From an uncultured delta proteobacterium (GTDB taxonomy: Bacteria > Desulfobacterota > RBG-13-43-22): a DNA stretch of 64,000 bases. The notes beneath the pieces are model-generated. The model saw only the letters and a list, made by a program, of their open reading frames with translations, was not told the origin of the DNA and did no database searches. Position numbers and translations under genes: made by a program. Location of the stretch: contig CAWJJC010000028.1 of assembly GCA_963843145.1 (NCBI GenBank), forward strand, positions 256,001 to 320,000, in the 5' to 3' direction. This document shows positions 332-59,992 of this stretch, piece after piece (positions within the stretch are counted from its first letter, which is position 1; each line of letters opens with the position of its first letter).

Positions 332-3300
332 ATGAATGAAACCTTCTGGGAAAATGAGGTGGCCCGCTTAAGCCGGGCGGGTGATGCCTTGGAAAGGCTG
401 ATCCAAGCTATTGGCGGAGGGCAGCTCCCGGCGCGGTTGCGGGGCCTGCAAGGTTCGGCCGGGCCCTACGCTACCGCTCAAATCCGGTCCGGCAGTCAGC
501 GGCCGGTAATGGTGATCTGTCCCGACGCCCGGTCGGCTTCATCCTTCTACCAGGATCTCCTCTTTTTTACCCAGCGTCAACTCCTGGAGGGGGCTCACCT
601 GCTTTCCGATGCCCCGATCCTTTTCCCGGCCTACGAAAAGTCCGATTTTCGGGAATTTGTCCCCCAAACAGACCTGGCCGCCCAGCGACTGGGCTGTCTC
701 TACGCCCTGCTGACGCACCCGGGGCAGGCCCTGGGCGTGACCTCCCTGGAGGCCCTGCTGAGCCCGGTGATTCCCCGAGAGGTCCTTTCCGAAAATGTGG
801 ATTACCTGGCCAGAGGTGAAGAGGCGGATCGGGAAAAAGTCCTGGCGCAACTGGTCTTCTGGGGATACGCCTCAACGCCCCTGGTCGAGGAGCCGGGGGA
901 TTTCAGCGTCCGCGGGGGGATCCTGGACGTCTACCCGCCCCTTTATGCCAACCCGGTGCGGATCGAATTTTTCGGCGACCTGGTGGAGTCCATCCGGGAG
1001 TTCAACCCGGCCACCCAACGGTCCCTCCGGGACCTCCCGGAGCTGTACCTGCTGCCGATCAGCGAAGTGATCGTGGCGCCCGAAAGGCTGGCCAAGGCCC
1101 AAGCGCGGCTGGCCGCAGCCCAGGCCGCGGAGGCCCTATCGGAAAAAGAGGCCAACTGGCTGAGGCACCGTTTGGAAGAAGGCCTGCCGGCAGGCGGGGT
1201 CGAACGTTGGCTGGACTGGTTTTATGAGCCGGCCGGGACCGTCCACGATTATCTCCCGGCCAATACCCTCTGGATCTGGAACGGTTCCCTGTCCTTACAG
1301 CGAAGCTGGGAGACCCTCAGCGATGAACCCTGGGAAACGTTCTTTCGGAAATTTGCCGGCCGGGATTATTTGCTCCTGGAAGACCTGCCTTTGGAAGGCG
1401 GAGCCGAGGAGGAGGGCCGAATCTGGCATTTGCCGGCCGTTGAAAACCAGGATGTCCGGCAAATCATCCGGGGCCAGTCCACTTCCCGGGAATCGTGGGC
1501 TGAAATGTCCCGCTTGATCACGGGCTGGTTGGAATTGGGCCAGGAAATCTGGCTGGTGGTTTCCCAGGATCATCAGGCCCGCCGTCTCCGGGATATTCTT
1601 TCTTTTTACCAGATGAAGGCCCAGGTGATCTCCGAACAAAAGGTGAATTTCGGCCGCCAGGGGACGGGTCTGTACCTGGTCACCGGGAGGTTGTCCGCCG
1701 GGTTCCGCCTTCAGGTCCCGCCACTGGTGGTCATCACCGAAGAAGAGATCTTTGAGCTAAAAAAAGAGGTGCGAAGAAAAGGGCAGGCGGAAAACATCCA
1801 GGCCTATATCAGCTCCCTGGACGATCTCCAGGTAGGGGACCTGGTGGTGCATCGGGAACACGGTGTCGCCAGTTATCAGGGCCTACAGCGTTTCACGATC
1901 GACGGCCTGGAAGGAGAATTCCTTTTCCTTTCGTACGCCGAGGGGGATAAGCTCTATTTGCCGGTCGACCGGCTGCAGGGGATCCATAAATTTTTAGGAT
2001 TGGAAGGACAGGTCCCCCGGCTGGATCGTTTGGGGGGGCTCTCCTGGAACAAGGCCAAGTCCCGGGTCAAAAAGGCGGTGGAAAAAATCGCCCAGGAACT
2101 GCTCGACCTGTACGCCCGCCGGTCGCTGACCAAGGGCTTTGCCTTTTCTCCGCGGGACCAGTTATTCAAGGAATTCGAAGCCGGCTTTCCCTATGAGGAA
2201 ACCCCGGACCAGCTCCGAGCTATCGAGGACGTCCTCTCGGACATGGAGGCGGAAAAACCCATGGACCGCCTGGTCTGTGGGGACGTGGGGTACGGTAAGA
2301 CCGAAGTGGCCCTGCGGGCGGCCTTCAAGACCGCCATGGACGGCAAACAAGTGGCTTTCCTGGTCCCGACCACGGTTTTGGCCGAGCAGCACTATCAAAC
2401 CATGGTGCGACGCTTTGAGGGTTATCCCCTGGAAGTGAGGATTTTAAGTCGATTCAAATCCCCCAAGGAGCAGAAGGAGACCCTGGCGGATCTGGCCGCC
2501 GGGAAGGTCGATGTGGTGGTGGGCACGCACCGCCTGCTGCAAAAAGACCTTCAGTTCCGGGACCTGGGTTTAATCATCGTGGACGAAGAGCAGCGATTTG
2601 GGGTGACCCACAAGGAGCGGCTCAAGACCCTGCGAACGCAGGTGGATTCCCTGACCTTGACCGCCACCCCCATACCTCGGACCCTGCACCTCTCCCTCTC
2701 CGGGATCCGGGACCTGAGTACCATCGAAACCCCGCCCGAAGAACGACAGTCCATCCGGACCTACATCGTCCGCTTCGAAGAAGACAAGATCGTCGAGGCC
2801 GTGCAGCGGGAATTGCTCCGGGGCGGGCAGGTTTTCTTCGTCCATAACCGGGTCCACAACATCCAGGCCATGGCCTTTTACCTGCGAAAAATCCTCCCTC
2901 AGGCCCGTATCGGGGTGGCCCATGGACAATTGCCGGCCCATGAGCTGGAGCGGGTGATGCTGCAATTCGTCCATCGGGAGCTCGACCTGCTGGTCTGCAC
3001 CACCATTATTGAGTCCGGGTTGGACATCCCCAGCGCCAACACCATTATCATCAACCAGGCGGACCGACTGGGGCTGGCTCAGATGTATCAGCTCCGGGGG
3101 CGGGTGGGACGCTCTCGGGAGCGGGCCTATGCCTATCTGCTCATCTCCGGGGAAAGTACCCTCACCCGCGATGCCCAGAAGCGGCTGAAGGTCCTCATGG
3201 ACTTCAGTGAACTGGGGGCCGGTTTTAAAATCGCCCTCCACGACCTGCAGATCCGCGGGGGCGGCAACCTCCTGGGCACCAGCCAGTCCGGGCATATTGC

Positions 3301-3820
3301 CGCCGTGGGGTATGAATTTTATATCGAGATGCTGGAGCAGGCCATTAACGGGTTAAAGGGGGAAAAGATCGAGGCGGACTGGGAGCCCGAAGTCCGGGTT
3401 CGAGCGGCGGCCCTGATTCCGGAGTCCTATATCCCCGCTACCGGTCAACGGCTTTCCGTCTACAAGCGTCTGGGGTCCACCCCGGATGAAGATCGACTGA
3501 TGGAAATCGCCGGGGAATTAAAGGATCGTTTCGGTCCCATCCCCCCGGAGTTGGAAAATCTACTGAAGATCATTTCTCTCAAAATCAAAATGAAACCCCT
3601 GGGCATCCAGCGGCTGGAATTATTGGACCGGGAGATGGCCCTGGTCTTTTCACCCCAGGGGGACTGGAACCTCGACCGCCTGATCGAATTGGTTCACCAG
3701 GAACCCCGAACCTATCAGTTTAAAGGAGAGGGGAAGCTGCTTGTGGCCCTGGGGGAGGAACCCGATTTATTGGAGGCCGCCGGCCGGTTTCTGACGAGGC
3801 TTAAAATATTGGTCGATTAG
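332..3820 (+). CDS. mfd: Transcription-repair coupling factor
   Basis: 1162 aa; UvrB-homology region, CarD-like RID (GDLVVHREHG), SF2 motifs GDVGYGKT, DEEQRFG, TATPIPRT, QLRGRVGR, C-terminal TRCF domain. Confidence 0.98.
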   Translation: MNETFWENEVARLSRAGDALERLIQAIGGGQLPARLRGLQGSAGPYATAQIRSGSQRPVMVICPDARSASSFYQDLLFFTQRQLLEGAHLLSDAPILFPAYEKSDFREFVPQTDLAAQRLGCLYALLTHPGQALGVTSLEALLSPVIPREVLSENVDYLARGEEADREKVLAQLVFWGYASTPLVEEPGDFSVRGGILDVYPPLYANPVRIEFFGDLVESIREFNPATQRSLRDLPELYLLPISEVIVAPERLAKAQARLAAAQAAEALSEKEANWLRHRLEEGLPAGGVERWLDWFYEPAGTVHDYLPANTLWIWNGSLSLQRSWETLSDEPWETFFRKFAGRDYLLLEDLPLEGGAEEEGRIWHLPAVENQDVRQIIRGQSTSRESWAEMSRLITGWLELGQEIWLVVSQDHQARRLRDILSFYQMKAQVISEQKVNFGRQGTGLYLVTGRLSAGFRLQVPPLVVITEEEIFELKKEVRRKGQAENIQAYISSLDDLQVGDLVVHREHGVASYQGLQRFTIDGLEGEFLFLSYAEGDKLYLPVDRLQGIHKFLGLEGQVPRLDRLGGLSWNKAKSRVKKAVEKIAQELLDLYARRSLTKGFAFSPRDQLFKEFEAGFPYEETPDQLRAIEDVLSDMEAEKPMDRLVCGDVGYGKTEVALRAAFKTAMDGKQVAFLVPTTVLAEQHYQTMVRRFEGYPLEVRILSRFKSPKEQKETLADLAAGKVDVVVGTHRLLQKDLQFRDLGLIIVDEEQRFGVTHKERLKTLRTQVDSLTLTATPIPRTLHLSLSGIRDLSTIETPPEERQSIRTYIVRFEEDKIVEAVQRELLRGGQVFFVHNRVHNIQAMAFYLRKILPQARIGVAHGQLPAHELERVMLQFVHRELDLLVCTTIIESGLDIPSANTIIINQADRLGLAQMYQLRGRVGRSRERAYAYLLISGESTLTRDAQKRLKVLMDFSELGAGFKIALHDLQIRGGGNLLGTSQSGHIAAVGYEFYIEMLEQAINGLKGEKIEADWEPEVRVRAAALIPESYIPATGQRLSVYKRLGSTPDEDRLMEIAGELKDRFGPIPPELENLLKIISLKIKMKPLGIQRLELLDREMALVFSPQGDWNLDRLIELVHQEPRTYQFKGEGKLLVALGEEPDLLEAAGRFLTRLKILVD

Positions 3821-15838: not shown

Positions 15839-15881
15839 ATTTGAATTTGTTACGAATTTAGTGTTTCGAATTTCGGATTTG
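15839..15881 (-). repeat. Single arm of the 7-bp-periodic (AAATTCG/AAATCCG) repeat family
   Basis: Minus strand AAATCCGAAATTCGAAACACTAAATTCGTAACAAATTCAAAT matches arms at 27657-27725 and 28096-28160. Confidence 0.75.
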
Positions 15882-15887
15882 AATTAA

Positions 15888-24276: not shown

Positions 24277-26160
24277 ATGTTCAAGAAAAAGAAGGCCGCA
24301 GCGGATAAAAAAACGCCGTTGGATAAAAAGACTACCGAATTGCTGGGATTGATTTTTGAAAAAATGCCCCGCAGGATTGAACTTTTGCTTTTTACCAGCC
24401 CCGGTCGGAACGAGCCCTATAGCGCGGCGATTCGGGAGTTTTTCCGATCGGTCGGTGATTTGACCGACAAGATCGATTTCAGGGAATACGATTTGACCCA
24501 CGAACTGGCCGCCGTCCACGAGGCGCAGGAATCGCCTACCCTGGTGATAGACCCGAGCCATATGCGCCTCCGCTGGCTGGGGGCCCCTGTCGGCCAAGAG
24601 GCCGCGGCATTTTTGACGGGCCTGGTCATGATCGGTCACCGCAAGGCCAATCTGGAAACACAATCCCGGAAGATACTCAATAGTATAGAGGAACCTCGCC
24701 GGATAAAGATATTTGTCAGCCCGACCTGTCCTTATTGCCCCCAGCAGATCATGAACGCCCTCAAAGCGGCCGTGGAGCGCCCCGATCTCATTTCCCTGGA
24801 GATTATCGATGTCCCGGCCATGGCCGAATTAGCCGAAAAATACCAGGCCTTCAGTACGCCCACCGTTTATGCCAATGAAAAACGGATCGCCCGGGGGGCC
24901 CAATCCGAAGAACTGTTCATGGCCAGTCTGAAGAAGCTGGAAGAAGAGACCATCTTCATTCCGGACAACGAAGCCGAAGAGATCGAAGTGGATCTGGTGG
25001 TGGTCGGTGCCGGTCCGGCCGGCCTCTCGGCCGGGATCTATGCCGCCCGCAGCGGATTACGGGCGGTAGTCGTCGAAAAAGGTGTCCTGGGGGGACAGGT
25101 GGCCATGACCCCGATAGTCGAAAATTACCCCGGTATTCCTCAGATAGGCGGCAAGGCCCTGGTGGACATCATGGTCGTTCATGCCCTGGAGTATGCCAAC
25201 GTTTTTCCAGGGGAAGAGGTCATGGAAATTAAACCGGGCCAGCCCCTGGTGGTGACTACCAGCCGCCGACGCTTTCTGACCCGGGCCGTTTTGTTGGCCA
25301 GCGGCGCTGTGTATCGACGGTTGGGGGTCCCCGGCGAAGAGCGCTTGTTCGGGCGGGGGGTCAGCTATTGCAGTACCTGCGACGGACCGCTGTTCAAGAA
25401 GGGCAAGGCGCTCATGGTGGGCGGAGGGGACAGCGCCGTCACCGAGGCCTTGCATCTGCATCAGATCGGGGTCGAGGTAACCCTGGCCCACCGGCGGGAG
25501 ACCCTGCGGGCGCAGGCCCAACTGAAGGACAGCCTCAAGGCGGCCAAGATCCCGGTCCTTTTCAATACCGAAATTCAGGAGATCAGGGGTGAGGAGCGGG
25601 TCAAAGAGGTGGAGCTGGTCAATAACCTCAGCGGAACAAGGCAGGTGATGGCCGTGGACGCAGTCTTCGTGTCCATAGGCTATGCCCCGGCGGTGGAGTT
25701 GGCGCGTCGGACCGGAGTAGCCCTCACCGAGGACGGGTATATCAAAAAGGACTCCCGCCACCGCACCAACATCCCGGGGATTTATTCGGCCGGGGATGTG
25801 GAGGGCGGCTATAAACAGATCGTCATCGCCGCCGGTCAGGGATCCGAGGCCGCCTTAGCAATTTTCGAGGATTTGGTCAATCCCTATTGGGTTTCTAATC
25901 AGAATCGGGCAAGGGTCTCGAGGCCTGAGCGCGGGGGACACCACGTCAGGCTTGTAGACCCGGAAGCGGGGGGACAGAGGCAATGCTCGGAGACCCCCAG
26001 GCTAAGAAATCACCAGGTACCATCCACCAATTGGCGTTTTTCTTCCAGATATTCTTCCAGTTCATCCAACTTCAGGTGGAGAAAGTCCTGGATCGATAAT
26101 ATACTTATCCATGGGTCCCGGAAGGGTTTTCGACGGGGCGCTCTCTTAATTCCTTTTTGA
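24277..26160 (+). CDS. AhpF-like fusion: protein-disulfide oxidoreductase domain plus thioredoxin reductase (true end probably near 25900)
   Basis: CPYC thioredoxin site, GAGPAG, GVSYCSTCDG, GGGDSA, AGDV; similarity ends at NPYW and the remaining ~90 codons look like run-on. Confidence 0.85.
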   Translation: MFKKKKAAADKKTPLDKKTTELLGLIFEKMPRRIELLLFTSPGRNEPYSAAIREFFRSVGDLTDKIDFREYDLTHELAAVHEAQESPTLVIDPSHMRLRWLGAPVGQEAAAFLTGLVMIGHRKANLETQSRKILNSIEEPRRIKIFVSPTCPYCPQQIMNALKAAVERPDLISLEIIDVPAMAELAEKYQAFSTPTVYANEKRIARGAQSEELFMASLKKLEEETIFIPDNEAEEIEVDLVVVGAGPAGLSAGIYAARSGLRAVVVEKGVLGGQVAMTPIVENYPGIPQIGGKALVDIMVVHALEYANVFPGEEVMEIKPGQPLVVTTSRRRFLTRAVLLASGAVYRRLGVPGEERLFGRGVSYCSTCDGPLFKKGKALMVGGGDSAVTEALHLHQIGVEVTLAHRRETLRAQAQLKDSLKAAKIPVLFNTEIQEIRGEERVKEVELVNNLSGTRQVMAVDAVFVSIGYAPAVELARRTGVALTEDGYIKKDSRHRTNIPGIYSAGDVEGGYKQIVIAAGQGSEAALAIFEDLVNPYWVSNQNRARVSRPERGGHHVRLVDPEAGGQRQCSETPRLRNHQVPSTNWRFSSRYSSSSSNFRWRKSWIDNILIHGSRKGFRRGALLIPF

Positions 26161-27640
26161 TCACCTTGCCTCCGGGATTCCGGGGCAACTCCGGCAAGAA
26201 GAGCACCCGGGCCGGTACCTTGAAATCGGCCAGGTGCTGTCGGCAATATTCCAGGATCTCCTCGACCGTGGCTTCCGTCTCCGGCCGCAGGACAACGCAG
26301 GCCCGGACCACTTCCCCAAAGATGGGATGCGCTTCCGGAACCACCGCGGACTCCAGGACCTGGGGGTGGGAGTTCAGGACCGATTCCACCTCGATAGAGT
26401 AAATGTTTTCCCCTCCCCGGACGATCATATCCTTCATCCGATCCACGATAAAGACATAGCCTTCGTCATCGATGCGGGCCACATCGCCGGTGTGCAGCCA
26501 GCCTTCCTTCAGGGCCTTCTGCGTCGCCTCCGGTTGGTTAAAATAGCCTTTGACGATGTTGGGTCCTTTGATGAGTAATTCTCCCGGATCTCCCGGTTGG
26601 ACTTCGTTCCCCAAGACATCCATTGCTTTTATTTGGACCCCGGGAACCGGCAAACCCACCGAGGGGGCCTTGCGGATGGCGTCGCAGGCGGGCAGGACGG
26701 TGGTTAGCGAAGAGGATTCGGTCAGGCCGTAGGCGTTAAAAAGTTCCAGGCCCAATCTGTTTTTCAAGGCCAAAATGGTTTCCTTATCCATAGGGGCCCC
26801 GCCGTAGGCCGCCAGGCGCAGGGAGTGCAGATCCCTATCCGCCAGGGCTTCGTTGATCAGCATCAGGACATACATGGTGGGAACATTGAACAAAACGGTG
26901 ATCTGATGGCGTTCAATGGCCTGGATCATCTCGATCGTCTTGTAGGCCTTCAGGATCACGCAGGTTCCGCCCAGGTAGATAAAGGCCACCAACTGGCTGT
27001 TTAACCCGGTGACGTGAAAAAGAGGGACCACGATCAGGGTGATGTCCTTCTCGGTGTAGGTGAGCATGGCTCCGCAATTTCGGGCGTTGGTGAAGATATT
27101 ACGTTGGGTCATCATGGCCCCTTTGGGCAGGCCGGTGGTGCCGGAGGTGTACATGATGGTGGCTACGTCTTCGGGGTTCAAATCCGGAAAAATGGGTAAG
27201 TCCGAGGCTTCCAGGAGATCGTTAAAAAAAAGGGCCCCCGATTTTCGTTCCGTTCCGGCATAAATGAATTCCTTGACCCGCGATAAATCCGGTCGAATCG
27301 CCTGGGAAACATCCCAGAATTGGTAACCCACTACCAGAACCCCGGCTCCGCAGTCATTCAAGATATAAACCAGATCTTTCCCGGTCAAACGGTTATTAAG
27401 CGGCACGGCTATGGCCCCGATAGCGGCGCAGGCATAGTAGGACACGGCCATTTCAATGCAGTTCGGAAAGAGCAGGGCCACCCGGTCCCCTTTCCGGACT
27501 CCCAGCTTTTGCAGATGGTAGGCCAGAGATAACACCTGTCGTTGCAGTTCCCTATAAGTCAGGGCTTCCTCGTCGCAGAGCAGGGCGGGTTTGTTGGGGA
27601 GGCGATCGGCAGTGGCCTGAAGCATTTGGTAGATAAGCAT
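26105..27640 (-). CDS. AMP-binding acyl-CoA ligase
   Basis: YTSGTTGLPKG, AYGLTE, WLHTGD, DRMKDMIVRGGENIYS, PRNPGGKV. Confidence 0.93.
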   Translation of the reverse strand: MLIYQMLQATADRLPNKPALLCDEEALTYRELQRQVLSLAYHLQKLGVRKGDRVALLFPNCIEMAVSYYACAAIGAIAVPLNNRLTGKDLVYILNDCGAGVLVVGYQFWDVSQAIRPDLSRVKEFIYAGTERKSGALFFNDLLEASDLPIFPDLNPEDVATIMYTSGTTGLPKGAMMTQRNIFTNARNCGAMLTYTEKDITLIVVPLFHVTGLNSQLVAFIYLGGTCVILKAYKTIEMIQAIERHQITVLFNVPTMYVLMLINEALADRDLHSLRLAAYGGAPMDKETILALKNRLGLELFNAYGLTESSSLTTVLPACDAIRKAPSVGLPVPGVQIKAMDVLGNEVQPGDPGELLIKGPNIVKGYFNQPEATQKALKEGWLHTGDVARIDDEGYVFIVDRMKDMIVRGGENIYSIEVESVLNSHPQVLESAVVPEAHPIFGEVVRACVVLRPETEATVEEILEYCRQHLADFKVPARVLFLPELPRNPGGKVIKKELRERPVENPSGTHG

Positions 27641-27656
27641 AAAATCTCCACTTAAG

Positions 27657-28160
27657 CTAAATTCGAAACTCGAAATTCGAAATCCGAAACAAATTCAAAT
27701 GTTCGAAATCTCGAATGATCAAAACAGAAAATTCAAAAATCCACAGTCCAGGAATTATTCACATTTGCGGATGATGGAACCGAAAATGTTCATTAGTTCG
27801 GTTGTTTCATCGATCAGGTCTATTCGTTCTTTCTCTCGGTCTGGATTTTCATTGATTTCAATGAGCCTCAACCAATAGCGGCTTTCTTTGGCTTCTTTAC
27901 GACAGATTTTGACTCTCAAGATGAAGTCTTTTTTGCTCAAAGACTCATTGGCTTCAATATAATTTGCTCCGATGGATCCGGAGGATTTGATAAGTTGTTT
28001 TCCATCTTCGATATTGGCTAACGTTTTCGGTAGTTCTTTTACGAATTTCCGCACGCGCTTAGCGAAAAGAAAGGTTCGATCCTCGAGGTCGAATTGTTTT
28101 GAGTTTTGATATTCGGTCATTGTAATTTGTTTCGAATTTCGGGTTTCGAATTTCGAATTT
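27657..28160. mobile_element. Four-helix-bundle gene module bounded by ~65-bp inverted arms of 7-bp periodicity
   Basis: Left arm 27657-27725 AAATTCGAAACTCGAAATTCGAAATCCGAAACAAATTCAAATG..; right arm 28096-28160 is its approximate reverse complement. Confidence 0.7.
27755..28120 (-). CDS. Four-helix bundle protein (23S rRNA IVP / bAvd-like family)
   Basis: FDLEDRTFLFA, QLIKSSGSIGANYIEANE, SKKDF, KEAKESRYWL. Confidence 0.9.
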   Translation of the reverse strand: MTEYQNSKQFDLEDRTFLFAKRVRKFVKELPKTLANIEDGKQLIKSSGSIGANYIEANESLSKKDFILRVKICRKEAKESRYWLRLIEINENPDREKERIDLIDETTELMNIFGSIIRKCE

Positions 28161-28165
28161 TCGGC

Positions 28166-28930
28166 CTACCAGGCCGTCCACCCTCCATCCACAAAGATGG
28201 TCTGTCCGGTGATGAAATCCGAGGCCTTCGAGGCCAGGAAGATCACGGTCCCTTCCAGTTCTTCCGGTTGTCCCCAGCGGCCCATGGGAGTTCGCTCGTT
28301 GATAAAGCGGAACCTTTCCGGATCGTTCCGTAAGGCAGCCACCAGAGGGGTCTCAAAATACGTGGGTCCGATGGCGTTCACCTGGATGCCGTGCCGGGCC
28401 CATTCCAGGGCCATGACTTTGGTCATCTGAATCACCCCGCCCTTGCTGGAGGCGTAGGGCAACTGGTTTTCCAGGCCCACAGCCCCTAAGATGGAGGCCA
28501 TGTTGATGATCTTGCCTTTCCTTTGTTTGATCATGGCCGGGGCTACGGCCTGGGCCACCAGGAAATAGCCTTTCAGGTTGGTATCCAAAACCTGGTCCCA
28601 GTCGGCTTCGGTCAGCTCCAGCACCGGTTTGCGGATATTGACTCCGGCATTGTTGACCAGGATATCGATTCGGTCAAAGGCGGATAAGACTTCTTCCACC
28701 GCCTGGGTGACGCTGCGCTGATCCAGCACATCCAGGGGAAAGATCCGGGCCTGGACTCCATAGACCTGTGCCAGGGCACGCGTCTTTTCCAGGTCATCCA
28801 GATTCCGGGCGCAGAGGGCCAGATCGGCCCCGGCCTTGGCCAGTCCGACCGCCAGGGCCTGCCCCAGTCCTTTGGAGGCCCCGGTAACCAGGGCCACTTT
28901 TCCGGTCAAATCAAAAAGATCTAACGCCAT
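28166..28930 (-). CDS. SDR oxidoreductase (KduD/gluconate 5-dehydrogenase-like)
   Basis: TGASKGLG, NNAG, YASSK, VNAIGP, TPMGRWG; GGAGG RBS before ATG 28930. Confidence 0.9.
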   Translation of the reverse strand: MALDLFDLTGKVALVTGASKGLGQALAVGLAKAGADLALCARNLDDLEKTRALAQVYGVQARIFPLDVLDQRSVTQAVEEVLSAFDRIDILVNNAGVNIRKPVLELTEADWDQVLDTNLKGYFLVAQAVAPAMIKQRKGKIINMASILGAVGLENQLPYASSKGGVIQMTKVMALEWARHGIQVNAIGPTYFETPLVAALRNDPERFRFINERTPMGRWGQPEELEGTVIFLASKASDFITGQTIFVDGGWTAW

Positions 28931-29059
28931 GCTGCTTCTTACCTCCTTTTGTAGTAACCCCTCCTGTCCGAGGGGACACCCCGAAGCTTGAAAATAAAAG
29001 GAACATAAGCCACACTGACTGACATTAATAATTAGTCCTTTTGATGTTAGCTGCAATCG

Positions 29060-29318
29060 TGGGCACAACCAGGGACAGAGTCTATTGCGATTGAATGCTG
29101 CCTTCCGAGAACGTCCTGGAATAGCCTGATCGGGTCGATCACCGAGTGCATATCGATATCGACACGACGGTGGAGACTGTCTATGGGGCTATTGAAGGAG
29201 CCCGAAAAGGCCATAATACTCAACACCGGGGCGAGAAGGGACTGCGGCCGGTTTTACTTTTCTGTAGGAGACCCGTGAGTATCTGGCCGTGACTTTCCGT
29301 CGTGGGGAAACGATTTCC
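29060..29318 (+). pseudogene. IS1380-family transposase internal fragment
   Basis: HIDIDTTVETVYGAIEGARKGHNTQHRGEKGLRPVL..ETREYLA..RRGETIS across frameshifts. Confidence 0.7.
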
Positions 29319-29814
29319 TTCGAATTAGCTCGTTTTATTTTTTCCTTCTGTCTGTTGTTGCCGGAATGCGTTCGGCAAGTGATTATTGGGCGTATTCGGA
29401 ATTTTACAGTGGTACGGTTATCAAGGCCTGTGAACGCGTCACTATATTATATTATCTCGGCCAAAAGCACCCATCCGGACTATGACTCCCAGCCTTGGTA
29501 TTCCTCACGGCTCATCTGGATAAACGAGACAATACCTTTAACCAAAGTCGTACGGGTTTTATGAAATATCGTCCGCGCCGTCAGGCTAGTTTTTGTACGA
29601 ACGACTTGCTATCCAGAATGTTTCTGGTCCTGATAAACCAGGCTTCCCTATGTCCAGATCGGGGACATCTGAATCCATTGGGCTTTCGAAGACTCGCAGA
29701 TGCTCTGCGCAAGCTTCTTCGGTGGAAAATCCCTCTGAAAATAAAGGTTAATAATCAATTGTTAATTATTAATTATTGATGAATGCCCGAGTGGCGCCGG
29801 GTTCTATTTTCGTA

Positions 29815-31928: not shown

Positions 31929-32065
31929 AAATCCGAAATTCGAAGCACGAAATCCGAAACAAGCACGAATTTTCAAAATCCAAATGATCCAAACAAATCG
32001 ATTCCGGGTTTGGAAATTTGGTCATTTGGATTTGTTTCGGATTTCGGATTTCGGATTTCGAGTTT
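31929..32065. repeat. Empty inverted-arm copy of the 7-bp-periodic repeat
   Basis: AAATCCGAAATTCGAAGCACGAAATCCGAAACAA ... TTTGTTTCGGATTTCGGATTTCGGATTTCGAGTTT. Confidence 0.85.
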
Positions 32066-37885: not shown

Positions 37886-37991
37886 GCTTCGCGGGTACTC
37901 GCCCCGAGCATGGGGGGTTAATGCGAAAATAGCCTCTTTGACCTGCAACCTGGCCAATAATCAATAATCAATTGACAATTATCAATGGTCT

Positions 37992-38063
37992 AAATTCGAA
38001 ATCCGAAACGTTTTTGTTTGGATCATTTGGGTTTTGGACCTTCGTGCTTCGAATTTCGAGTTT
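37992..38063. repeat. Internally deleted copy of the 7-bp-periodic repeat
   Basis: Nearly identical to the core of 59857-59992, with deletions between repeated units. Confidence 0.8.
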
Positions 38064-51630: not shown

Positions 51631-52277
51631 AAGGTAAACCCCCGGCTAGGCCGGGGGACTCCAAAAGTTTGACAATTCCGGGAATATAAGAAAGCCTCCC
51701 GACTGTGAACCGCTCAAAGTTTACAGAGAAGGAGGCTTCCAATGGAACACACCAGAAGTTTAAGCCATACCAAGTGGGAATGCAAATATCATATAGTCTG
51801 GATACCGAAATGTCGAAAAAAGACATTGTATGGTCATCTGCGCCAATATCTAGGGGAGTTGTTCAAAGAATTGGCTACCCAAAAGGAATGCGCCATTATC
51901 GAAGGGCACCTCTTGGCGGACCATGTGCATATTTTGATCTCGATACCCCCCAAATATGCGGTCGCCCAAGTCGTGGGGTATCTCAAGGGAAAGAGTGCGA
52001 TCCACATTGCCCGAGTTTATCTGGGACGAAAAAAGAACTTTGTTGGTCAACATTTTTGGGCCAGGGGATACTATGTTTCAACCGTGGGCAAAGATGAAGT
52101 AGCTACCCGAAATTATATTAAGAATCAAGAAAAAGAAGATCATCATCTGGACCAGATCGAACTGTTTCCGGAAGAAGATAAACCGACCACAGATAAACCA
52201 TCTTCAGATGGTGAATAAATAATCCGCTTTGAGCGGTTCACAATTTCAAGCCTCCGGCTTTGCCGGAGGTACTTGAC
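51630..52277 (+). mobile_element. IS200/IS605-family element (tnpA only)
   Basis: Terminal hairpins CCCCCGGCTAGGCCGGGGG (51639) and CCTCCGGCTTTGCCGGAGG (52251); 16-bp IR TGTGAACCGCTCAAAG / CTTTGAGCGGTTCACA; ends approximate. Confidence 0.88.
51742..52218 (+). CDS. tnpA: IS200 HUH/Y1 transposase
   Basis: CKYHIVWIPK, DHVH, HFWARGYYVSTVG, YIKNQ. Confidence 0.96.
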   Translation: MEHTRSLSHTKWECKYHIVWIPKCRKKTLYGHLRQYLGELFKELATQKECAIIEGHLLADHVHILISIPPKYAVAQVVGYLKGKSAIHIARVYLGRKKNFVGQHFWARGYYVSTVGKDEVATRNYIKNQEKEDHHLDQIELFPEEDKPTTDKPSSDGE

Positions 52278-58609: not shown

Positions 58610-59830
58610 ATGAAGGGGAAGGTCGTGGAAGAAGAGAATACTAGTAATAATACCAAAAAAGCAGGGTCGAAAAAAAAGCCGGTTATTATTATGGCGGGTG
58701 TGGCGCTCTTGGCGGTTATCGGCGGGTACCTCTATTGGCGGTACTCCCAAACCCATATTTCTACCGATGACGCCTATGTGGCCGGGTCCATCTATTCCGT
58801 TAGTTTCCGGATACCGGGGACCGTGAGCAAGGTATGGGTTCATGACAATCAACTGGTGGAATCAGGGCAGGAGCTGGTGACCCTGGACCCCGCTGATTAT
58901 GAAGTGGCCTATAAACAGGCCCAGGCCACTCTGGAAAACCTCAAGGCCCGCTGGGCTTCCGCCCGGATGGCGGTCCCTCTGGAATCCGACCAGACCCGGG
59001 CCCGGGTGGATGAATCCAAGGCCGGGGTAGGGACCTCCGAAAAAAACGTGGACGAAGCCCGGCAACAACTCCGGCGGCTGCAAGAAGAAACGAAAACCCA
59101 GCAGGCCCTCCTGGACAAGGCTACCTGGGATCGGGACCGCTTCAGCAAACTCTTCCAGCAGAAGGCCGTCTCCCGGCAGCAATACGACGACGCCCAAACG
59201 CAGTATGAGGTGGCCTTTTCGCGTCACCAGGGGTCTTTGGCCGCCCAACAGGCCCTGCAAAATTCCATTGCCGGTCTGGGCGAACAGATCAAGCGGGCCC
59301 AGGCCCAGGTGGTCTTTGCGGAGACCGGCCGGCAGGGGGTCAAGATCAAGAAACAGCAACTGGAGGCTGCCAAGGCGGAATTATCTTTGGCCGAGGCCCG
59401 GCTCGATCAGGCCCGGTTACAATTGTCGTATACCCGGATCCTGGCCCCGGCTCGCGGCCACATAACCAAAAAAAATGTGGAAGTTGGAAATTTGGTCCAG
59501 GCCGGACAGCCTTTGATGGCCCTGGTCCCTCTGGAAGACCTTTGGGTGGTGGCCAATTACAAGGAAACCCAGCTAAAGCGGGTGAAGAAAGGTCAAGAGG
59601 TGACCATCAAGGTGGATACCTTCCCGGGCAAGAAAATCAAAGGCCGGGTCGAAAGTCTCATGGCCGGAACGGGATCGGCCTTTTCCCTGTTCCCGCCTGA
59701 AAATGCTACCGGAAACTTCGTTAAGATCGTTCAGCGCCTCCCGGTCAAAATCGTACTGGAAAAGAACCAGGAACTCCCACCTCTGCGGGTCGGCATGTCG
59801 GTGGAACCCACCATCTTAGTAAAAGAATAA
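58610..59830 (+). CDS. HlyD/EmrA-family membrane fusion protein
   Basis: STDDAYV, VVANYKETQL, FSLFPPENATGNFVKIVQRLPVKI. Confidence 0.93.
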   Translation: MKGKVVEEENTSNNTKKAGSKKKPVIIMAGVALLAVIGGYLYWRYSQTHISTDDAYVAGSIYSVSFRIPGTVSKVWVHDNQLVESGQELVTLDPADYEVAYKQAQATLENLKARWASARMAVPLESDQTRARVDESKAGVGTSEKNVDEARQQLRRLQEETKTQQALLDKATWDRDRFSKLFQQKAVSRQQYDDAQTQYEVAFSRHQGSLAAQQALQNSIAGLGEQIKRAQAQVVFAETGRQGVKIKKQQLEAAKAELSLAEARLDQARLQLSYTRILAPARGHITKKNVEVGNLVQAGQPLMALVPLEDLWVVANYKETQLKRVKKGQEVTIKVDTFPGKKIKGRVESLMAGTGSAFSLFPPENATGNFVKIVQRLPVKIVLEKNQELPPLRVGMSVEPTILVKE

Positions 59831-59856
59831 CCAAAAATATTTGAATTTTTGGTTAG

Positions 59857-59992
59857 AAATCCGAAATCCGAATTTCGAAACTCGAAACAAATTCAAATGC
59901 TCCAATATCAAAATCCGAAACGTTTTGTTTTGATCATTTGGATTTTGGACCTTCGTGCTTGTTTCGGATTTCGTGCTTCGAATTTCGAATTT
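59857..59992. repeat. Empty inverted-arm copy of the 7-bp-periodic repeat between emrA and emrB
   Basis: AAATCCGAAATCCGAATTTCGAAACTCGAAACAAATTCAAATG ... TTGTTTCGGATTTCGTGCTTCGAATTTCGAATTT. Confidence 0.85.

Follow-up and report, generated by a model that had tools for sequence, protein, structure and literature searches.

A four-helix-bundle gene between inverted heptamer arms in an operon of an uncultured delta proteobacterium: a probable mobile cassette related to rRNA intervening sequences

Introduction

The 23S rRNA genes of Leptospira, Coxiella burnetii and Xanthomonas may carry intervening sequences (IVSs) with an open reading frame (ORF) for the protein S23p, and these are the closest described counterparts of the element studied here, a four-helix-bundle gene enclosed by inverted arms of heptamer repeats within a 64,000-nt stretch of DNA from an uncultured delta proteobacterium (the whole stretch is hereafter called the window). 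According to the available text of PMC4990558, the Coxiella IVS has terminal inverted repeats and, before the S23p start, tandem GACAGAT heptamers whose number varies among strains; RNase III cleaves this IVS at the first repeat, and cutting by this enzyme has been shown for the IVSs of Coxiella, Leptospira and Salmonella. The same portion of that paper describes Xanthomonas S23p as a homopentameric toroid and quotes an old proposal that the IVS ORF serves mobility. A study of insertions in the rRNA genes of bacteria of the candidate phyla radiation (CPR) found the four-helix-bundle family scattered over several rRNA sites.

From comparative analysis we conclude that the element in the window, which lies between the genes for a short-chain dehydrogenase/reductase (SDR) and an AMP-binding acyl-CoA ligase, is very probably a selfish mobile cassette related to the rRNA IVS that resides in an mRNA operon. 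It resembles the rRNA IVS in its protein family, its size (~430-500 nt), the inverted termini around an ORF, the tandem heptamers that precede the start codon and the decay of that ORF, and the Coxiella unit GACAGAT is also the arm unit of two cassettes on contig C4 of the source genome. It is unlike the rRNA IVS in lying between the protein genes of an operon, in having dozens of gene-less derivatives and in its cross-phylum distribution. The cassette is not in an rRNA gene and therefore lacks the defining feature of an IVS, although it has stem-loop termini around an S23p ORF; neither an IVS nor a heptamer array was found in the genome's own 23S gene (C22:352849-355871).

The cassette can also be compared with autonomous transposons and their MITEs (miniature inverted-repeat transposable elements), with which it shares inverted ends made of a repeated short motif, a gene-bearing master accompanied by uniform deletion derivatives, and turnover at its sites; unlike them it has no transposase, integrase or reverse transcriptase (RT) of a known family and encodes only a 121-aa helical bundle. 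Subterminal arrays of transposase-binding repeats are present in Ac/Ds, En/Spm, Tn7 and Mu. Proteins of the TRAP-type ring class read spaced short repeats in single-stranded RNA, one per subunit step; the likeness here, a core of 3-4 nt with free spacers, is by analogy only, the fold being different and four units standing against five subunits. Intergenic heptamer repeats are known as the short tandemly repeated repetitive (STRR) sequences of heterocystous cyanobacteria, the GGGAATC repeats of Xanthomonas and SPADE's 'most abundant intergenic period'. Like the arms of the cassette they are tandem, 7-nt long, intergenic and often arranged in convergent pairs (70 GGGAATC pairs in Xcc and 75 in Xac, in the available text of PMC4692102), and they have been reported as over-represented, with a function declared unknown (bioRxiv 10.1101/309039 and PMC4692102, both in their available text); unlike them, the cassette arrays belong to one particular gene family, whose arms or footprints they are. 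S23p or four-helix-bundle genes are mentioned 0 times in the searched text of these two sources, and a literature search of partial coverage, which is not proof of absence, found nothing that connects four-helix-bundle genes with heptamer arrays outside rRNA. Finally, bAvd, the accessory protein of diversity-generating retroelements (DGRs), is likewise a four-helix bundle, and its pentameric barrel binds a structured part of the RNA of its own retroelement (available text of bioRxiv 10.1101/2023.10.23.563531); the cassette differs in having no RT partner and no template or variable repeats, and the identity of its protein to Avd-type matches in structural alignment is only 16-17%.

Results

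The window corresponds to G000:C28:256001-320000, where G000 is the source genome. The cassette gene is located on the minus strand at 27755..28120 and encodes a 121-aa member of the S23p / IVS-protein / Avd-like family, which matches both PF05635 23S_rRNA_IVP (E 4.3e-13, 49.9 bits, cut-off 33.8) and TIGR02436 'four helix bundle protein' (E 2e-20, 73 bits, cut-off 24) in profile searches. The inverted arms around it were detected as the pair 27659-27707 / 28112-28160, which is 49 nt long, 84% complementary and 404 nt apart, with inner runs of 24 nt that reach 92-96% complementarity, and Tandem Repeats Finder (TRF) counted 4.4 copies of the heptamer AAATYCG per arm. By reading the sequence the full arms extend to ~27659-27725 and 28096-28160, running through AAACAAATT(C/A)(A/C)AATG...CAAAAC. 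The 5' arm in the coding orientation (28096..28160, minus strand) is formed by the heptamers AAATTCG, AAATTCG, AAACCCG and AAATTCG, followed by AAAC, a leader rich in A, and then the ATG with the first ~8 codons, so that the start codon (28118-28120) falls within the conserved inner block of the arm. The 3' arm (27659..27725, minus strand) begins on the coding strand with an inner part, GTTTTGATCATT...TTTGAATTTGTTT, continues with four heptamers and ends ~18 nt short of the ligase ATG.

The cassette is inserted with little room to spare between its two host genes. Upstream, the SDR gene (28166..29068, minus strand; adh_short_C2, E 3.5e-68) has its stop codon at 28166-28168, 5 nt outside the arm; its listed start is probably too far upstream, as relatives align only from ~residue 40. 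Downstream, the acyl-CoA ligase gene (26105..27640, minus strand; AMP-binding, E 2.3e-98) starts with an ATG at 27640, preceded by a GGAG ribosome-binding site just beyond the 3' arm. The cassette flanks reach an inverted-repeat score of 63, whereas the 99th percentile among 2000 randomly chosen genome positions with the same geometry is 25, and the motif TTCGAAATYCGAAA (<=1 mismatch) occurs 13 times in the window, versus 0.12 expected and a maximum of 2 across 100 shuffles. The G+C content of the cassette is 37.5% versus 54.6% for the window. On the gene strand within the cassette a promoter scan showed no promoter-like site upstream of the gene, and a terminator scan gave nothing convincing. 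Rfam yielded no family match, the sole hit being a viral stable intronic sequence RNA (sisRNA) model with E 0.42, far under its gathering score. Profile searches found no transposase, integrase or RT of a known family in the cassette, whose sole ORF is the four-helix-bundle gene. The initial annotation of this locus had described a four-helix-bundle gene between ~65-bp approximate inverted arms of about four heptamers, with its ATG inside one arm, which fills the gap between the SDR stop and the ligase ribosome-binding site and encodes neither transposase nor RT; this description is upheld in all its parts by the profiles, the arm complementarity, TRF, the ORF map and the sequence itself.

The closest solved relative of the protein by sequence is PDB 2rld (E 2.4e-12). 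An AlphaFold model built from 51 sequences (predicted local distance difference test, pLDDT, 93) predicts helices at residues 13-28, 34-58, 63-86 and 93-120, and the best Foldseek matches of this model are 2rld (template modelling score, TM, 0.72), 2gsc (Xanthomonas Xcc0516) and 4dwl (Avd of the Bordetella phage retroelement), with 8ub7 also among the structural matches; pentameric rings are formed by the solved relatives, and the 2rld and 2gsc entries contain five chains each. The conserved residues of the family, Q, S, N and E on helix 2 and E on helix 3, are present in the 121-aa protein: Q42, S49, N53, E56 and E79 are invariant in one alignment (A1), and Q42, S49, N53 and E79 in the other (A2). 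Comparison of the cassette gene with that of the relative G007 gives a non-synonymous divergence (pN) of 0.14 against a saturated synonymous divergence (pS) of 0.84, and the protein is thus judged to be under purifying selection.

The arrangement is not a peculiarity of this locus. The genome holds 17 TIGR02436 matches, including 12 short genes of ~125 aa, and in 10 of these 12 the inverted-repeat score of the flanks exceeds the 99th percentile of random positions, while 9 show period 7 in both flanks; those below the threshold are one truncated gene and one other, and a period of 9 is found in one gene (cassette G000:C28:783068-783391). The heptamers vary from cassette to cassette, with units such as GGGGTAG-like, CGAGGAN, GACAGAT, CGAACAT, AATAATC-like, AATCCAC-like and AAGATGG. 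Two of the cassettes, G000:C4:3497-3817 and C4:6499-6819, are only 3 kb apart, encode proteins that are 92.5% identical and bear long GACAGAT/GACGGAT arms. Four long ORFs of 200-240 aa (G000:C29:16758, C16:5217, C28:474993 and C27:146307) show a partial TIGR02436 match at the N-terminus (~2-69) and have no arms; at least one of them contains a zinc-finger-like C-terminal stretch, a different architecture with the same fold.

Beyond the source genome the family is present in 69 of 121 sampled genomes of the phylum. The best-scoring locus was taken from each of 30 genomes, and among the 29 that could be scored (control 99th percentile 23, n = 520) inverted flanks were found in 27, period 7 in both flanks in 21 and period 8 in both flanks in 4. 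The subfamily of the cassette reaches much further. We analysed the best 80 of at least 569 relatives (61-77% identity, one genome per species scanned); these 80 span 26 NCBI-named phyla, many of them Patescibacteria candidate phyla, and inverted arms are present in 68 of 78 scorable loci, with a heptamer that is nearly always of the AAAT(C/T)C(G/T) type. The modal number of units is four, both in 5' arms (38 of 61) and in 3' arms (52 of 66), and the ATG-anchored consensus of 73 loci consists of four heptamers followed by AAACAAATTCAA and ATGACCGAAAT..., with no Shine-Dalgarno sequence. Co-occurrence of arms and four-helix-bundle genes, by which the initial annotation had suggested that its proposal be judged, is therefore far above chance at all three levels, the genome, the phylum sample and the subfamily. 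Cassettes of the subfamily sit between unrelated genes in many phyla, and these comparisons indicate that the whole unit of gene plus arms has spread horizontally.

We then consider what the arms conserve. Among 46 loci with both arms in register, the heptamer core AA + C(G/T) is kept in 85-100% and matches between the arms, whereas the three middle positions, which act as spacers, match in only 24-57%; the two arms of one cassette concur in the G/T choice of the core (agreement 0.74-0.96). The spacers would therefore be mostly unpaired, and many stems would consist of short 4-bp helices broken by 3x3 loops. Across 39 loci, identity between loci is 60% for the 44 nt that precede the ATG, versus 33% at synonymous third positions of identical residues and 46% when the arm is shifted by one period; the excess over synonymous positions implies that the arm sequence is under a constraint of its own. 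As only a 4-nt core in every 7 nt is conserved, inverted on the two sides, the arms look like arrays of a protein recognition motif rather than a plain RNA stem. Arm mismatches counted on the sense strand (37 of 40 cassettes, three with a score <30 having been dropped) comprise 53 G-U versus 72 A-C and 194 of transversion type, a distribution that gives no support to selection for pairing in the sense RNA and is not decisive against it. The transcript of the cassette in the window is predicted to fold with a long terminal stem (minimum free energy -142.8 kcal/mol, z -3.78).

The core varies together with the protein. Typing of 77 subfamily cassettes gave 38 with CGAA units, 18 with CTAA units and 21 mixed. 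Residue 118 is Arg in 29/38 CGAA and 0/18 CTAA cassettes (uncorrected Fisher p 2e-8, the rows being kin), the latter having Glu (9), Thr (6), Val (1), Gly (1) or a gap (1), and residue 111 is Asn in 24/38 CGAA and 0/18 CTAA cassettes (uncorrected Fisher p 4e-6, with the same kinship among rows). The three mixed cassettes with a majority of T units have Glu or Thr at position 118. Both residues are located on helix 4 of the predicted model, in an i, i+7 relation. We regard the association between residue 118 and the G/T choice as a lead, not as a demonstration. Across 30 cassettes of diverse subfamilies, heptamers are identical only where the proteins are >=66% identical (4 of 435 pairs), and at 55-62% protein identity they already differ at 2-4 positions.

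Most copies of the arms in the genome enclose no gene. We designate as family A the hairpins and arrays with AAATYCG-type arms like those of the SDR-ligase cassette. With a loose pattern, the 5.35-Mb genome contains 293 arm arrays of the cassette heptamer, which form 82 inverted pairs, and only one of the 82, the SDR-ligase cassette itself, encloses a TIGR02436 match. Sixty-nine non-redundant gene-less hairpins have cassette-type arms, three of them in the window (31929..32065, 137 bp; 59857..59992, 136 bp; and 37992..38063, shortened to 72 bp; none has an assigned strand). Twenty-four of the 69 are 134-139 bp long, colinear, with a mean identity of 83%, and share a common junction that joins the 5' arm, including the ATG and ~nine codons, straight to the 3' arm. 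A common junction in 24 uniform copies points to a single deletion inside a cassette, after which the short form multiplied; by this evidence the gene-less hairpins, such as that at 31929..32065, are deletion derivatives, related to the cassette as a MITE is to its parent element. Hairpins of the CGAACAT family (family C) still contain remnants of both the 5' and the 3' end of their four-helix-bundle gene, and their pairs occur 24 times in +/- polarity and 0 times in -/+. Period 7 is the commonest tandem period of the genome that is not a multiple of three, with 530 non-redundant arrays, compared with 192 and 183 for periods 8 and 10, and each of the four largest heptamer families (~136, 89, 54 and 20 arrays) corresponds to the arms of one of the genome's own four-helix-bundle cassettes.

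Some further observations concern these hairpins. A small palindrome, AACCAAAAAT + 8-10 nt + ATTTTTGGTT (window 59830-59856), abuts one end of ~1/3 of the family-A hairpins (43 flanks, inspected by eye) and may belong to a longer composite element or represent a favoured target. In several family-A hairpins whose loops are long (e.g. G000:C10:118673-118912, C5:34644-34831 and C28:619091-619299), the loop holds G+C-rich inserts with the short palindromes CCCCTCCC...GGGAGGGG, which look like nested insertions at the apex. The summed contig depth of the metagenome run X5, from sediment, is 1200-3350 on the arms (window 27590-27787 and 28085-28183) versus 10-90 on the flanking genes; the arm family is extremely abundant in this sample, presumably across many organisms. 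DNA contigs of four metagenome runs showed a very high coverage depth over the arms and also joints that skip ~430 nt at the locus, but the sides of these joints are only 22-36 nt long and we read them as gene-less hairpins elsewhere or in other organisms rather than as excision at this locus.

Intact cassettes nearly always share the direction of the genes around them. Among scorable subfamily loci the upstream neighbour is co-directional with the four-helix-bundle gene in 65 of 69 and the downstream neighbour in 63 of 71; both are co-directional in 52/61 loci of the subfamily and 21/24 of the phylum sample, and both opposite in none of either sample. Gene-less hairpins of family A with readable polarity are instead found in sense (16), in antisense (18) or between convergent or divergent genes (11). 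The simplest reading of this difference is that insertion is unoriented and that only genes transcribed by host read-through stay intact; selection would therefore act on the expressed protein.

The SDR-ligase junction was compared in six relatives (G001, G002, G003, G005, G007 and G015). G007, of a different genus, has an intact cassette with a protein identity of 74%, whereas the cassette gene is frameshifted in G002 and G003, 3'-truncated in G005 and reduced by an internal deletion in G001, where ~267 bp are left between shortened arms. In G015, of a fourth genus, the SDR and ligase genes are both intact and 54 bp apart, with no cassette. The ORF is thus intact only in G000 and G007 and broken at 4 of 6 occupied orthologous sites, and an empty site of the kind that the initial annotation had proposed to look for does exist, together with decayed copies in four relatives. 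These data indicate that the cassette entered the junction in the ancestor of three genera, is decaying in most descendants and is absent from the fourth. The flanking genes show pS values of 0.49 and 0.61 between G000 and G007, below the 0.84 of the cassette gene, and the cassettes at the junction are therefore perhaps not strictly orthologous; a resident cassette may have been replaced by a related one through its arms (locus L001 in G000 versus L004 in G007). Occupancy also varies at the sites of the gene-less hairpins. At the site of 59857-59992 the same hairpin is present in G001 and G003, another heptamer family in G002 and a third in G007, and G005 has no element there. The hairpin site at 31929-32065 is filled in G002, G003 and G005, retains half an element in G001 and, in G007, carries a hairpin of another family beside a remnant arm.

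Discussion

We lean towards an explanation in which the cassette is a promoter-less mobile unit whose arms are sites for its own protein, acting in trans, and whose transcript is cut by RNase III. In such a mechanism the gene would be expressed by read-through from the host operon, and the arms would serve in cis as sites whose recognition differs by subfamily, the most probable reader being the protein that the cassette itself encodes; the motif in this cassette would be C-G-A-A plus three free bases, with four units per arm and then the conserved leader with the start codon. The protein would act in trans on the gene-less copies, like a transposase on MITEs. Whether the arms are subfamily-specific binding arrays for a pentameric protein of the cassette, serving the gene-less copies in trans, we judge to be finely balanced on the comparative data. 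By analogy with rRNA IVSs, the arms in the operon transcript probably pair and are cut by RNase III, which would separate the SDR and ligase messages; the uncoupling of the two host messages would limit the harm of the insertion. The DNA step might be an insertion at the apex of palindromes already present, a recombination between the arms of resident hairpins or the action of a host enzyme that the protein recruits.

Other explanations account for part of these observations. One is that the element acts as an IVS purely at the RNA level, with arms that matter only as a double-stranded stem for RNase III and a protein that does not touch them. The predicted long closing stem of this copy agrees with it, as do the sense orientation of cassettes inside operons and the excision by RNase III, at such stems, of rRNA IVSs of the same gene family (available text of PMC4990558). 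The initial annotation had envisaged a transcript folded into a long stem with the ORF looped out, which is a fair prediction for the copy in the window but is not a conserved feature of the subfamily, where spacers have diverged while the core is kept and no excess of G-U pairs is seen on the sense strand. Moreover, conservation of both heptamer sequence and unit number goes far beyond what pairing requires, and a mechanism confined to RNA would leave the multiplication of gene-less copies unexplained; we consider it improbable. We give a similarly low probability to the gene being a passenger, which landed in, or was carried by, one copy of a hairpin family similar to MITEs or to repetitive extragenic palindromic (REP) sequences and moved by an unrelated host transposase, e.g. 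of the Y1/IS200 type. It would fit the single gene among ~70 family-A hairpins, the uniform and orientation-neutral gene-less copies, and the 11 Y1_Tnp matches of the genome, one of them in the window. Against it, the same subfamily is found with arms in a fixed register and the ATG in the arm at 68/78 loci of the 26 named phyla, each abundant heptamer family has a cognate gene and the hairpins of family C retain gene remnants, no Y1 or RT gene has a main-family array within 1.5 kb, and every cassette is more than 19 kb away from such genes. A system of REP sequences with their associated tyrosine transposase (RAYT) was rejected on the same grounds, none of the 11 Y1_Tnp matches having a main-family heptamer array at that distance.

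The initial annotation had left the choice between a selfish and a regulatory cassette. What stands is a self-contained unit of the IVS type within a co-directional gene pair, and the regulatory alternative has become weak. A domesticated regulator, in which the protein or the hairpin controls the SDR-ligase operon, e.g. through mRNA stability or translational coupling, could explain why the cassette persists at this junction across three genera, with arms that abut the SDR stop and the ribosome-binding site of the ligase; but the breakage of the gene at most occupied sites, the empty junction of G015 between two intact host genes and the presence of the same cassette between unrelated genes in many phyla make it very improbable. 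Least credible of all, to the point of being practically negligible, is that the protein is a bAvd of a DGR. Its fold and family do resemble Avd, with 4dwl and 8ub7 among the structural matches, but its neighbours are the SDR and ligase genes and no RT, template or variable repeat is found beside it; this gene content refutes DGR membership for the locus, and the RVT_1 match nearest to any of the genome's 12 cassettes is 29.9 kb away, with none on the contig of the SDR-ligase cassette.

Several points weigh against the mobile cassette with protein-binding arms as we have proposed it. The evidence is comparative throughout, and binding, cleavage and transposition are all inferred from it. The link between residue 118 and the core rests on perhaps 2-3 independent switches, as the CTAA cassettes show two C-terminal signatures, and a test of independent pairs on a poorly resolved tree was powerless, with 1 pair when limited to supported branches and 6 when every branch is counted. 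In 21/77 cassettes CGAA and CTAA units occur together in the arms, four units per arm have no obvious fit to a pentamer, and a minority of cassettes have period 8 (4/29; L021, L022, L025 and L036) or 9. Visual inspection of the flanks of 43 hairpins, whose ends are blurred by variable heptamers, revealed no evident target-site duplication. The genome possesses, besides its 11 Y1-transposase-like genes, several RT genes, which could act in trans, and the authors of the Coxiella work argue that production of S23p in vivo is improbable (available text of PMC4990558).

A cassette that behaves like a transposon with its MITEs and has no known transposase is possibly a categorically new type of mobile element. 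A bolder proposal, which we hold to be unlikely as a whole, is that the S23p/IVS proteins are the sequence-reading part of a class of transposase-less mobile elements: a pentameric ring would read the 4-nt cores, with Arg118 paired to the G of CGAA, and would drive or license the spread of cassettes and hairpins within genomes and between phyla, the rRNA IVS, STRR, the GGGAATC arrays and the intergenic heptamer excess being products of one system. If true, it would give one answer to two puzzles, the function of the S23p/IVS family, which dates from the 1990s, and the intergenic excess of heptamers. The source genome is unusually clear in this respect, with about a dozen cassettes of different heptamers, abundant families traceable to one cassette each and deletion derivatives at several stages, and its relatives provide empty, occupied and replaced sites. 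A protein reading a programmable 7-nt code would be of interest as a tool; even if it does not, the cassettes matter for annotation, since they split operons, form long mRNA hairpins and generate from their arms many small ORFs labelled 'hypothetical'.

Other features of the window

A degenerate solitary arm with family-A heptamers was detected at 15853..15885 (no assigned strand) by the motif and tandem-repeat scans. On the plus strand at 51772-52128, a 169-aa ORF has a strong Y1_Tnp (IS200/RAYT-like) match (E 5e-37), with no heptamer array within 1.5 kb. Arrays of a second family (CAATAAT, TTAATTA) at 37955-37972 and 29748-29777 match the arms of cassette G000:C6:118944, and one array of this family directly adjoins a family-A hairpin.

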